Assembly: GCA_016712285.1 (NCBI GenBank)
Contig: JADJRK010000001.1
Location: forward strand, 897,098-961,097
Direction: 5' to 3'
Length of the DNA stretch: 64,000 nucleotides
From: Planctomycetota bacterium
GTDB lineage: Bacteria; Planctomycetota; UBA8742; UBA2392
How positions within the stretch are numbered: the first letter of the stretch is position 1; each line of letters opens with the position of its first letter. The translations under genes and the position numbers were made by a program. The notes under the pieces are model-generated. The model was not told the origin of the DNA. It was given only the letters and a program-made list of their open reading frames with translations, and searched no databases. Shown piece after piece: positions 10,134 to 12,846 of this stretch.

Positions 10134-11057
10134 ATGAAGGTGCAGTACCCACAACAGTTCTCTCGCTGCCTGACGCTGTTCGCGTTGCTGCTTTGCGTGA
10201 TCACGCTGGCTTCGTGCGCGCGCCAGCGCCTGACTGCCTTTGAGCAGGGCGCCGAGTTCATGGATTATGGCGACTACCCGCGCGCCATCGAGAAGTTCAA
10301 GGATATTGAACGCCGCGAGGGCGGCTCGCTTGCAGTGTGTTACAACCTCGGCGTCTGCTACCAGGACATGAAAGACTGGGAGCAGGCGGTACTGTGGTAC
10401 GAAAAGGCGCTCGAGTACGACCCCCGCGATGGCGACACACTCGTGAACCTCGGGCTGGTCTACCTTGAACAGGGCCGCGACGTGGCTGCGCTCGCGCGAC
10501 TGAAGCAAGCCGCCGACGTCGAGAAAGACCGCGCTTACCCGCTGGTGGCGATGGCGCTGTATCACCAGCGGCGCGGCGAAAAAGACAAGGCGATGGAGCT
10601 GTACAAGCAGGCCTCCAAGCGCGAAGAGAAGTCGGGTTATCTGTGGTACCACTGGGCCACGCTGTACGAAACGATTGAGCAGAACCAGGGACAGGCCGCG
10701 GAGGCCTATGAGCGCTCGATTGAGTACGACAGCACCAACCCCGCAGCCTTCGAGGGCGCCGCACGCGCCTACTATCGCCTGAACAACTGGCGTAAAGCTG
10801 TGCAGCATTACGACTTCGCGATTCACCTGCAGCCGGACAAACCCAAGTTGTACGTCGCGGCGGCCGACGCATTGATCAAACTGGAGCGCTATGAGCGCGC
10901 AGTGCAGTACCTGTGGAATGCCCGCGGCCTCAAGGGGGCTGACGAGAAAGACATCGCCCGGCGATTGCTCGAGATTTATCCGAAACTGACCGAGCAAGAA
11001 CGCGCGCGGCTAGACCCCGCAAGCAAAGAAAGCTCCGCCGGCGGCAACAACGAATAG
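10134..11057 (+). CDS. TPR-repeat lipoprotein, last gene of the Mla-like operon
   Basis: Lipobox LASC after a signal peptide; multiple TPR-like W/Y-rich helices (WYEKALEYDP..., LWYHWATLYE...). Confidence 0.7.
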   Translation: MKVQYPQQFSRCLTLFALLLCVITLASCARQRLTAFEQGAEFMDYGDYPRAIEKFKDIERREGGSLAVCYNLGVCYQDMKDWEQAVLWYEKALEYDPRDGDTLVNLGLVYLEQGRDVAALARLKQAADVEKDRAYPLVAMALYHQRRGEKDKAMELYKQASKREEKSGYLWYHWATLYETIEQNQGQAAEAYERSIEYDSTNPAAFEGAARAYYRLNNWRKAVQHYDFAIHLQPDKPKLYVAAADALIKLERYERAVQYLWNARGLKGADEKDIARRLLEIYPKLTEQERARLDPASKESSAGGNNE

Positions 11058-11167: not shown

Positions 11168-11270
11168 AGTGGCATCGCCTTTCAGGCGATGTAGTTGCAG
11201 GCGCTTCCAGCGCCTGTACGCCTCGGGCTGGAAGCCCGAGGAACGACATTGGCTGGAAGCCAATGCCACT
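11168..11270. repeat. Array of 4 consecutive perfect hairpins bounded by the inverted repeat AGTGGCAT...ATGCCACT (upstream array)
   Basis: catcgcct-ttc-aggcgatg (11173-11191); caggcgct-tcc-agcgcctg (11198-11216); cctcgggct-gga-agcccgagg (11221-11241); cattggct-gga-agccaatg (11247-11265). The stems share the frame CA-N4-CT / AG-N4-TG. Confidence 0.75.
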
Positions 11271-11338
11271 TTTCTGCGAGTTTCCGCGCCAACGTGTGTC
11301 CGCCGCTTCCTGGGTACGGAGGCTGCACAGGAGCGACC

Positions 11339-11806
11339 ATGGCCAGGTTTCAGAAAGTCGGCAACCGCAACCGCGACGACAAACGCTTTCGCGACACGCT
11401 GCGTCGCGAAGACCACTTCAAGCAGGCATACGAAGCGCTGCTGGCCGAAAGCGACATTGCGCGCATCGAAGCCGAGATCCGCGACTGCGAGCAGGTCAAG
11501 CGCATGTGGCGCAAAGAAGCCAACGCCCGCGAAAAGATCCTCGACGGCGGCGACGTAGACCGCACACGCTGGCAGGTCTCGCCCATGGCCCTGCAACGCG
11601 CCAACATGCGCCAGCAAAGCCTGATCCTGCAACGCCAGCGAGTGCAGAAACTGCTGCTGCAACAAGCGGAAGAAGCCACGCAGCAGCGCTTTCCAGATCC
11701 AGCAAAGCCCACCGAAACCAGAAAACAGGAGCCCGGAGCGCCAGCGACGGGTAACCCAGCGACCCAGGCACCAGCACCCGAAAACCACAGCAACGCACCA
11801 CCGTAA
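11339..11806 (+). CDS. Hypothetical protein. Basic/Gln-rich coiled-coil N-terminal region and Pro-rich C-terminal tail; no recognisable domain
   Basis: ATG 11339 with AGGAG at 11329-11333. 155 aa, MARFQKVGNRNRDDKRFRDTLRRE...LILQRQRVQKLLLQQAEEATQQRF...PATQAPAPENHSNAPP. Third-position GC is typical of the genome. Bracketed by the two hairpin arrays. Confidence 0.6.
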   Translation: MARFQKVGNRNRDDKRFRDTLRREDHFKQAYEALLAESDIARIEAEIRDCEQVKRMWRKEANAREKILDGGDVDRTRWQVSPMALQRANMRQQSLILQRQRVQKLLLQQAEEATQQRFPDPAKPTETRKQEPGAPATGNPATQAPAPENHSNAPP

Positions 11807-11817
11807 ACACAGCAAGA

Positions 11818-11951
11818 AGTGGCATTGGCTTCCAGCCAATGTAGTCGCAGGCGCTTCCCGCCTTCGCTAAAGCTTCGGCGGGCATGCCAGCGCCTGCACG
11901 CCACGGGCAAGGATGCCCGTGAAACTCCATCGCCTGGAAGGCGATGCTACT
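11818..11951. repeat. Second 4-hairpin array with the same bounding repeat (AGTGGCAT...ATGCTACT). Hairpin 2 carries a 33 nt insertion that contains its own 6 bp stem
   Basis: cattggct-tcc-agccaatg (11823-11841); caggcgct-tcc...agcgcctg (11848-11896, nested cccgcc/ggcggg); cacgggca-agga-tgcccgtg (11902-11921); catcgcct-gga-aggcgatg (11928-11946). Stems 1 and 4 are exchanged relative to the upstream array with compensatory pair changes (C-G to T-A, C-G to G-C). Confidence 0.75.
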
Positions 11952-11964
11952 CGCGAGGGCCAGC

Positions 11965-12846
11965 ATGCTTGAGGACGCTGAATTCCTGCCGGCGGATTCT
12001 TACCCCGCGGACGAACGGCCGCCGCTGGGTGAGTCCGGCGACTTTGCCGACCCCGACGGCACGCGTTGGTCCACCAACGAAGAATTGATCGAGGGCCGCA
12101 CCCGCGACGGCCGCCTGGCGCGGCTGCGCTCGCACCTGCTGTACATGCCATGGGAAAAGCCCATTCCCGGCGGGCCCGACACCGCGGACGACAAGCTGCG
12201 CGCGCCGCTGGCCGAGCTGATCTTTCAAGCCGACCTCGAAGCGCTGCAATCGCTGCGCATGGTCGAGTCCTTTCACCTCGACATGGTGACGATGGCAAGC
12301 GGCGTGCTGCGCGGCGGCGAGCCGCCCGGAGGCATGCGCACGGACCAGGTGCTGCGGCTTGGCCAGTACAGCGCGCGCGAAGTGCCTAAGGTGGCGATGA
12401 TGCGGCGCGCGTTGATGCAGGAAAGCGCCAAGCGCGCGTGCGAGAAAGACATTCGCGACGCGTTCATGTGGGACCGCGCGCACGCCGTGGTCGCCAACAC
12501 GCTGCTGGCGATGGACAAGCAGTTTACCGAAGTCGGGTTCGGAAGCTGGATGCCGTTCCGCTTCCCGGACCAATGGCTGATGTTCTGCGGCGTGATGCGC
12601 CGCGTGCTGGCTGCCAACGGGCTCATTCATGCCAAGAACCCGGATGTGTACCGCCGGCTGCTGGAGGAAACGCCGTTTGTGAAAGCCGAAGAAGACGAGG
12701 GCGTGCGCGGCAAGCTGAAGCTGCCGCACAACTGGAGCAGCCTGTGGACCAACCGCGGCGCGCAAAGCATGCAGGAGCTGTACGAGCGCATGAGCGTGGA
12801 GATCTACAACAAACTGCCACAGCAGAAGCGGCAGTGGGAACAGTAG
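11965..12846 (+). CDS. Hypothetical protein, no recognisable domain. The start is ambiguous: ATG 11944 lies inside the last hairpin, and ATG 11965 has GAGGG 8 nt upstream
   Basis: About 293 aa, ...MLEDAEFLPADSYPADERPPLGESGDF...WMPFRFPDQWLMFCGVMRRVLAANGL.... GC3 is high on the + strand. The - strand antisense ORF 11947..12873 is Arg/Ala/His-rich, artefact-like. Confidence 0.55.
   Translation: MLEDAEFLPADSYPADERPPLGESGDFADPDGTRWSTNEELIEGRTRDGRLARLRSHLLYMPWEKPIPGGPDTADDKLRAPLAELIFQADLEALQSLRMVESFHLDMVTMASGVLRGGEPPGGMRTDQVLRLGQYSAREVPKVAMMRRALMQESAKRACEKDIRDAFMWDRAHAVVANTLLAMDKQFTEVGFGSWMPFRFPDQWLMFCGVMRRVLAANGLIHAKNPDVYRRLLEETPFVKAEEDEGVRGKLKLPHNWSSLWTNRGAQSMQELYERMSVEIYNKLPQQKRQWEQ

Follow-up and report, generated by a model that had tools for sequence, protein, structure and literature searches.

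Two homologous arrays of four hairpins each, at 11168-11270 and 11818-11951, stand on either side of a gene for a 155-residue protein in a 64-kb stretch of Planctomycetota DNA (hereafter the window; all coordinates are positions of this whole stretch). An earlier note had described this arrangement, and the sequence indeed reads as it said. The question raised by the locus is what these arrays are and whether the gene between them belongs to them. The best explanation is that each array is very probably a non-autonomous mobile element of the repetitive extragenic palindromic (REP) type, that is, a head-to-head REP dimer akin to the REP doublets forming hairpins (REPINs) and to the bacterial interspersed mosaic elements (BIMEs), and that the gene is an ordinary resident. 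This identification follows from the GTRG tetranucleotide at the foot of the outer hairpins, the inverted doublet, the extragenic position, the presence of the same arrays around genes for REP-associated tyrosine transposases (RAYTs) in relatives, and the differences in presence and absence between related loci. In its layout, an array can be equated with an IS200/IS605-like element whose left and right ends are fused and whose transposase gene has been lost.

Anatomy of the two arrays

The upstream array (11168-11270; 101 nt from GTGG to CCAC) is a REP heterodimer, REPIN-like and head-to-head, whose spacer holds two hairpins. Its four hairpins are all perfect (11173-11191, 11198-11216, 11221-11241 and 11247-11265). 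The scan for GTRG next to a perfect 8-bp hairpin places a REP unit of subtype A at its left end, on the plus strand (11169-11191; GTGG then CATCGCCT-TTC-AGGCGATG); the right end is a unit of subtype B that reads on the minus strand as GTGG then CATTGGCT-TCC-AGCCAATG (11247-11269). Between them lie inner hairpin 2 (11198-11216; CAGGCGCT-TCC-AGCGCCTG) and inner hairpin 3 (11221-11241; CCTCGGGCT-GGA-AGCCCGAGG); no strand is assigned to the inner hairpins, nor to either array as a whole.

The downstream array (11818-11951) measures 132 nt from GTGG to CTAC and has its hairpins at 11823-11841, 11848-11896 (interrupted), 11902-11921 and 11928-11946. Here subtype B comes first, on the plus strand (11819-11841; GTGG then CATTGGCT-TCC-AGCCAATG), and subtype A last, on the minus strand (11928-11950; GTAG then CATCGCCT-TCC-AGGCGATG). 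Inner hairpin 2, recovered in RNA and DNA folds (CAGGCGCT ... AGCGCCTG), is split between its TCC loop and its right arm by an insertion (11859-11888) with a CCCGCC/GGCGGG stem of its own. This insertion is 30 nt long, and not 33 as previously counted. Inner hairpin 3 reads CACGGGCA-AGGA-TGCCCGTG.

Both arrays can accordingly be written as GTRG-hairpin ... hairpin-CYAC, two REPs inverted around a short spacer. The tetranucleotide stands directly 5' of a perfect 8-bp stem on all four outer hairpins (three times as GTGG, once as GTAG), and the general form of the unit is GT[AG]G at the foot of an 8-bp stem, a TYC loop, then NNGT, with a spacer of about 55 nt that contains two more stem-loops. 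The bounding repeat AGTGGCAT/ATGCYACT of the earlier note is a real pattern, but its CAT and ATG are shared with hairpins 1 and 4, and the outer element should properly be written (A)GTRG ... CYAC(T). The frame CA-N4-CT/AG-N4-TG, which had been attributed to every stem, fits five of the eight, both third hairpins being among those that differ. The two arrays have their outer subtypes in opposite order (A...B upstream, B...A downstream) while the order of the inner hairpins is identical, as seen in repeat D4 and the inverted pairs I1 and I3; repeat analysis of the downstream array returned the families D1, D2 and D4 along with these two pairs. This bears on the covariation that had been claimed between stems 1 and 4. 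It preserves a structure at the level of the family, as will be seen, but the exchange of the two stems within the window is better read as two REP subtypes (CATCGCCT and CATTGGCT) in opposite order than as independent compensatory mutation. Both arrays are extragenic, the first lying between a stop at 11057 and a start at 11339, the second between a stop at 11806 and a start at 11965, and neither of them (101-132 nt) contains an open reading frame (ORF).

That such arrays are far beyond chance, as had been stated, is borne out in several ways. The pattern AGTGGCAT-N(80-110)-ATGCYACT had no match in 100 shuffles, the hairpin-frame pattern matched seven times against 0.88 expected, and the four instances in the window of GTRG ahead of a perfect 8-bp hairpin all lie inside the two arrays. 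A scan of the window with the covariance model R1 found the arrays at 98.6 and 76.4 bits, the next best score being 16.7 bits. Folding also shows them to be unusually stable, both as RNA and as DNA (z-scores from -5 to -7.4). The longest perfect hairpin in the window scan is a separate feature, a 15-bp hairpin at 2134-2168 (CACAAAGCCACGAAG-AGCGA-CTTCGTGGCTTTGTG) unrelated to the REP family.

Structure, distribution and transposase of the family

Covariation was studied on 14 aligned four-hairpin arrays, using a model made up of four separate hairpins and a 4-bp outer stem. Under this model 96.3% of the cells are paired, with double-sided changes in 19 pairs and a covariation score of 0.435. 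None of 500 shuffles reached these values, and slid controls of the model gave 26-38% paired cells. The stem of inner hairpin 2 covaries across the family (helices 3 and 4), and inner hairpin 3 has double-sided changes in six of its eight pairs (helix 5). Since hairpin 2 is partly out of register in the MAFFT alignment, the 88.8% of paired cells obtained for its helix is an underestimate. The minimum-energy RNA fold of the upstream array computed with ViennaRNA is a long single hairpin that joins hairpin 1 with hairpin 4, yet its variable outer positions are unpaired in 9-10 of the 14 arrays, and for this reason it was discarded as the structure that is conserved. Selection maintains the individual REP stem-loops and not a long REPIN hairpin, which is consistent with a protein that recognises each hairpin.

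All 14 aligned arrays have the inverted GTRG-hairpin ... hairpin-CYAC layout, and the Y, Y, R, R pattern of the loops is a consequence of this two-fold symmetry. Moreover, every array obtains about the same covariance-model score on either strand: the minus-strand scores are 93.0 bits for the upstream and 73.6 bits for the downstream array, next to the 98.6 and 76.4 bits of the plus strand. Such near equality argues for a palindromic element at the DNA level rather than a directional RNA.

The family extends well outside the window. A scan of one genome per species with the pattern AGTRGCAT-NNN-CTTYCAG-NNN-ATG-NNGT, which leaves three free stem positions per arm, found 21 loci against about 4 by chance on our rough estimate. 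Most of them belong to Planctomycetota and Verrucomicrobiota (metagenome-assembled genomes, or MAGs, of Chthoniobacterales and Verrucomicrobiae), and in most of the 21 the free stem positions are complementary. These elements end with an inverted hairpin and CYAC after two, three or four hairpins. Among the four-hairpin arrays, 9 of 14, from different MAGs, measure exactly 101 nt. One of them, L020, shares 94% identity with the upstream array of the window and comes from a different MAG, where the locus is unrelated. A second scan, of metagenomes, used the 23-nt REP consensus and matched at least 120 stretches; 80 loci were analysed among the matches listed. The commonest dimer among these 80 is a simple two-hairpin doublet of 49-60 nt, 35 inverted dimers occur among the metagenome loci listed, and one sample (Ga0255338) has the REP on at least seven contigs among the matches listed.

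Two observations concern the surroundings of individual copies. The SJ201 MAG has the same array with about 50 nt of identical flank on two contigs (L008 7582-7681 and L019 1-94), in both cases at a contig end or no more than about 300 nt from one; such positions are compatible with the breaking of short-read assemblies by these repeats. In L022 (4462-4944), an additional inverted repeat (GTAGCATCGGCTTCCAGCCCAATACTGCGGGGTTAAGG ... and its inverted copy about 340 nt off) and other long palindromes are nested with the array, which suggests that one repeat was inserted into another.

The link with a transposase comes from the relatives. At locus L008, two four-hairpin arrays surround an ORF of 196 aa that matches Pfam Y1_Tnp (IS200-like) at 26.3 bits, above the cut-off of 23. 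This protein has 6,876 homologues at E up to 1e-5, many of which carry the Joint Genome Institute (JGI) name 'REP element-mobilizing transposase RayT'. The best NCBIfam model for the RAYT is the REP-associated tyrosine transposase (REP_Tyr_transpos; 74.5-78 bits, E = 8e-21), whereas the IS200 model reaches E = 8.6e-4. L032 has a RAYT between two full, mutually inverted arrays, and L033, L034 and L083 have REPs on either side of the RAYT. In L025-L030, the RAYT lies within a split array (GTAG-hairpin-hairpin, gene, hairpins-CTAC), a layout that would be expected of the autonomous ancestor. The arrays that flank RAYTs in the relatives align with those of the window and fit the covariance model R1.

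A tblastn search with a RAYT query found no RAYT in the window, and the arrays are also away from any RAYT at 8 MAG loci and at 78 of the 80 metagenome loci listed. The absence of a RAYT from the window indicates that its arrays are dispersed, non-autonomous copies. The source genome nevertheless appears to encode one elsewhere. The protein P0010 (MBK8206938.1) is a RAYT 72% identical to that of L032, with intact HVH and SYDH motifs, and scores 27.5 bits with Pfam Y1_Tnp (cut-off 23) and 74.5 bits with NCBIfam REP_Tyr_transpos (cut-off 80). Both it and the bracketed protein (MBK8205870.1) are recorded on a contig of 4,122,760 bp, and their accessions are about 1,068 numbers apart; from this size and accession series, the RAYT gene and the arrays appear to share the same 4.12-Mb contig.

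The bracketed gene, its relatives and the origin of the arrangement

The bracketed gene (11339-11806, plus strand; 155 aa and a stop; MBK8205870.1, IPK87_03630), hereafter gene 1, is a lineage-specific resident gene. Its protein belongs to no Pfam or NCBIfam family and has no similarity to RAYT, Y1_Tnp or HUH proteins in Pfam, NCBIfam or tblastn with a RAYT query, in agreement with the earlier statement that the enclosed ORF lacks an HUH signature. The possibility of a degenerate transposase was rejected on these empty searches, the ORF being a conserved coding gene. A collection of 5.8 billion sequences yielded only two other homologues. The central 65 residues are invariant among the relatives, and most substitutions fall at third codon positions, in this gene and in the downstream gene alike. 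One further similarity concerns its 3' part: 35 of 36 nt at 11717-11752 are identical to the very end of a RAYT-bearing Logan contig of another organism (L025 7387-7422); either an assembly chimera formed where a k-mer is shared or the start of a homologous gene could account for this.

The downstream host gene, gene 2 (11965-12846, plus strand), encodes 293 aa of no family. Alignment with L031 and L003 puts its true start 13 nt downstream of the array, which is immediately followed by a GAGGG ribosome-binding site. Mechanical ORF calling had chosen instead an ATG at 11944, inside the terminal REP. Gene 1 is preceded on the plus strand by a 5'-leader motif, ttccgcgccaac-gTGTGTCCGCCGCTTCCT-N7-GGAGG (11282-11322), which is unique in the window and forms part of the host gene rather than of the element. 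No sigma-70 promoter was found between 10900 and 12200. A hairpin between CUUCC and the GGAGG 7 nt downstream may sequester the ribosome-binding site, judging from their complementarity. In the relatives, this leader (ttccgcgccaac-N-TGTGTCCGCCGCTTCCT-N7-GGAGG, the TGTGTCCGCCGCTTCC leader) stands 5' of both genes (84-130 and 690-740 in L031, 195-232 and 870-905 in L001, also in L002 and L003).

The comparison of orthologous loci tells the gene and the arrays apart. Gene 1, the leader and gene 2 are all retained in L031, whose nucleotide identity is about 91% (91.9% over gene 2), and in L001-L003 (about 88%), but neither spacer of these loci contains an array. The relatives that have the genes without the arrays imply that the latter were gained at this locus in the lineage of the window, and the idea that gene and arrays form one unit falls with this result. 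The reverse difference occurs in L022: this locus is syntenic with the window at 54-63 kb, and it contains an array at a site where the window lacks one. The downstream array takes the place of about 80 nt of ancestral spacer including the leader motif of gene 2, and the leader is left before gene 1 only. In L024, a REP dimer and a four-hairpin array bracket another, unrelated gene, from which the bracketing can be understood as a consequence of intergenic insertion. The spacer between genes 1 and 2 of L001 (715-835), and also of L002 and L003, contains another kind of palindromic element, some 115 nt long and with hairpins inside it (CATGCCGCCCC ... GGGGCGGCATG); structured repeats seem to be inserted preferentially in this spacer.

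Several other explanations of the arrays may be considered. One of them is that they are structured RNA modules (a 5'/3' protective, terminator or attenuator cassette, or a small RNA) selected in the transcript of gene 1. Their folds are very stable (z-scores of -5 to -7), covariation is strong and the loops are conserved. The last hairpin of the upstream array has a T-run behind it and a terminator-like score, the downstream array begins 11 nt past the stop codon of gene 1, and REPs elsewhere in bacteria influence mRNA stability and termination (PMC3733652). Yet the equal scores on both strands leave no transcript polarity, the arrays also flank RAYT genes and adjoin unrelated genes in other genomes, and close relatives have the same two genes without them. 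Rfam offers no match even at E = 10: between 11100 and 12000 the best hit reaches 19.5 bits, where the gathering score is 45, and over the whole window Rfam 15 at the gathering score returns two tRNAs only. Selection as an RNA module is improbable, and any RNA role of the arrays would most likely be a secondary by-product.

Another possibility is that array, gene and array make up a composite mobile cassette moved by the RAYT, with the orphan gene as cargo. The arrays are separated by about 550 nt in a layout that mirrors the RAYT loci L008 and L032, the gene is an orphan for which hardly any homologues were recovered, and the outer REP subtypes are mutually inverted in the manner of terminal inverted repeats (pairs I1 and I3). 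Nevertheless, the array-free synteny of L031 and L001-L003, where gene, leader and downstream gene are all in place, makes the gene older than the arrays at this locus. This led to the rejection of the cassette, which is very improbable also in view of the unrelated gene bracketed in L024 and the lack of similarity between gene 1 and RAYT. Lastly, that the arrays are ordinary intergenic palindromes or terminators, immobile and born of chance or local duplication, would suit the presence of just two copies in the window, adjacent to each other, but can be given next to no credence when the chance expectation is about zero, an unrelated locus of another MAG (L020) has the same architecture at 94% identity, and the unit occurs at dozens of loci in metagenomes and in genomes of the Planctomycetes-Verrucomicrobia-Chlamydiae (PVC) group, with a linkage to RAYT genes.

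Insertion of REP-type mobile elements thus remains the favored origin, and a mechanism can be proposed by analogy with better known transposases. In the paradigm of the E. coli TnpA-REP and of IS608, hairpins are recognised and cleaved on single-stranded DNA. On this basis, a single-copy RAYT of the Y1/HUH type encoded elsewhere in the genome would recognise the folded hairpins and the GTRG foot on single-stranded DNA, cut and rejoin this strand, and so move or copy the array into intergenic DNA; we infer that the arrays would be mobilised in trans, by the RAYT of the source genome. Two copies would have been inserted in adjacent spacers flanking a resident lineage-specific gene, the downstream one displacing about 80 nt of spacer with the leader of the next gene. 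Side effects at the RNA level are possible, such as a stabilisation or an attenuation of the gene 1 transcript, and gene 2, having lost its own leader, could possibly be read through from gene 1.

Some observations weigh against this reading. There is no clean insertion footprint, as the spacers of the relatives differ in sequence and not by a simple indel. Two arrays in adjacent spacers would arise in only about 3-4% of cases under random placement, according to our estimate; such a placement hints at local hopping or a shared target. The swapped outer subtypes with unchanged inner order require an extra step of recombination or inversion, and the downstream array is probably a mosaic produced by one or the other between inverted REPs. 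The RAYT falls just under the NCBIfam equivalog cut-off (74.5-78 bits for 80). Finally, the strict pattern gives 1-3 matches per representative genome, far below the hundreds known from Pseudomonas or E. coli, and the 64 kb of the source genome that were scanned contain only two arrays (four REPs).

A more ambitious version of the REP explanation would combine two proposals: that the arrays form a distinct, length-constrained subclass of Planctomycetota REPINs, with four hairpins, about 101 nt and a flippable inner module, and that their paired insertion rewired a pair of host genes. In that case, gene 2 may have been joined to the gene 1 transcript by the replacement of its leader, which possibly sequesters the ribosome-binding site. 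The two together are improbable; if true, they would make the locus a case of regulatory exaptation driven by REPINs, or of a gene-bracketing unit that a RAYT can mobilise. The current view of REP-RAYT biology is unchanged by these arrays, and their value lies mainly in annotation. They are explained as REP/REPIN elements and tied to a RAYT family widespread in Planctomycetota and Verrucomicrobiota, and the covariance model and search patterns can be used to mask or annotate such repeats in PVC genomes and MAGs. The family is also a clear example of selection on four separate small hairpins instead of a long REPIN hairpin, and the locus provides one case of a REPIN insertion that deleted the conserved leader of a neighboring gene.

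Comparison with known systems

The analogies that had been proposed for the arrays fared unequally. Those with REP-BIME-like DNA and with IS200/IS605-type ends are supported by the GT[AG]G doublets and the flanking of RAYTs in relatives, while those with attC sites and with a protective RNA cassette are not. An integron cassette does not fit, as there is no integrase among the five neighboring genes scanned with Pfam and the arrays are made of four perfect hairpins with a GTRG foot and not of one bulged attC stem. The likeness to the IS200/IS605 elements (IS608, ISDra2) consists in a Y1/HUH transposase and in subterminal hairpins at both ends that are recognised on single-stranded DNA, a layout seen in L025. 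Yet the window arrays are non-autonomous, with no transposase between their hairpins, and an autonomous insertion sequence was rejected as the ORF between the arrays has no similarity to Y1_Tnp or HUH. In addition, the ends associated with RAYTs are symmetric inverted REPs, unlike those of IS608, which are asymmetric and act on the top strand only, and the TnpA of IS200 belongs to a clade distinct from RAYT.

The REPIN-RAYT systems (the REPINs of Pseudomonas fluorescens; the REP/BIME elements and TnpA-REP of E. coli) are much closer. They share with our arrays the GT[AG]G at the foot of a short hairpin, the inverted pair of REPs, the extragenic position, copies situated away from any RAYT, REPs on both sides of the Y1/HUH RAYT gene (here in the relatives) and the differences in presence and absence between relatives. 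They differ in that the host is here a member of the Planctomycetota and not of the Gammaproteobacteria, that two extra conserved stem-loops in the spacer bring the array to four hairpins and about 101 nt, and that the outer partners are usually heterodimers unable to pair with each other. The copy number also appears low in the present case, both in the 64 kb of the source genome and in the representative genomes (1-3 each).

Contrary to the opinion that no element of this organisation had been described, REPs, REPINs and BIMEs are well known, including dimers with structured spacers and the GTAG repeats of the PVC group (PMC3733652; PMC3116915). The REP doublet was named REPIN by Bertels and Rainey (PMC3116915) and 'HH dimer' by Di Nocera et al. 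2013, who found stem-loops in the spacers of some dimers and reported GTAG/GTGG repeats in Planctomycetes (R. baltica, Planctomyces) and in Opitutus terrae (PMC3733652). The stem and loop CAYNNNCT-TCC-AGNNNRTG are absent from the text and supplements of the latter study (searched as CTTCCAG and CTGGAAG), whose consensus sequences for GTAG-1 to GTAG-24 stand in a figure and were not compared. Set against the published families by description only, the REP-heterodimer array of four hairpins and about 101 nt may be an undescribed family within the known REP class. With the GTAG REPs of Opitutus terrae and Rhodopirellula baltica (PMC3733652) it has in common the GTAG or GTGG tag (GTGG being predominant in GTAG-20 of O. 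terrae), stems of 6-9 bp, outside-tagged HH dimers with conserved spacers of 20-100 bp that sometimes contain stem-loops, the occurrence of heterodimers and of grouped elements, RAYT genes flanked by REPs, and hosts in the PVC superphylum.

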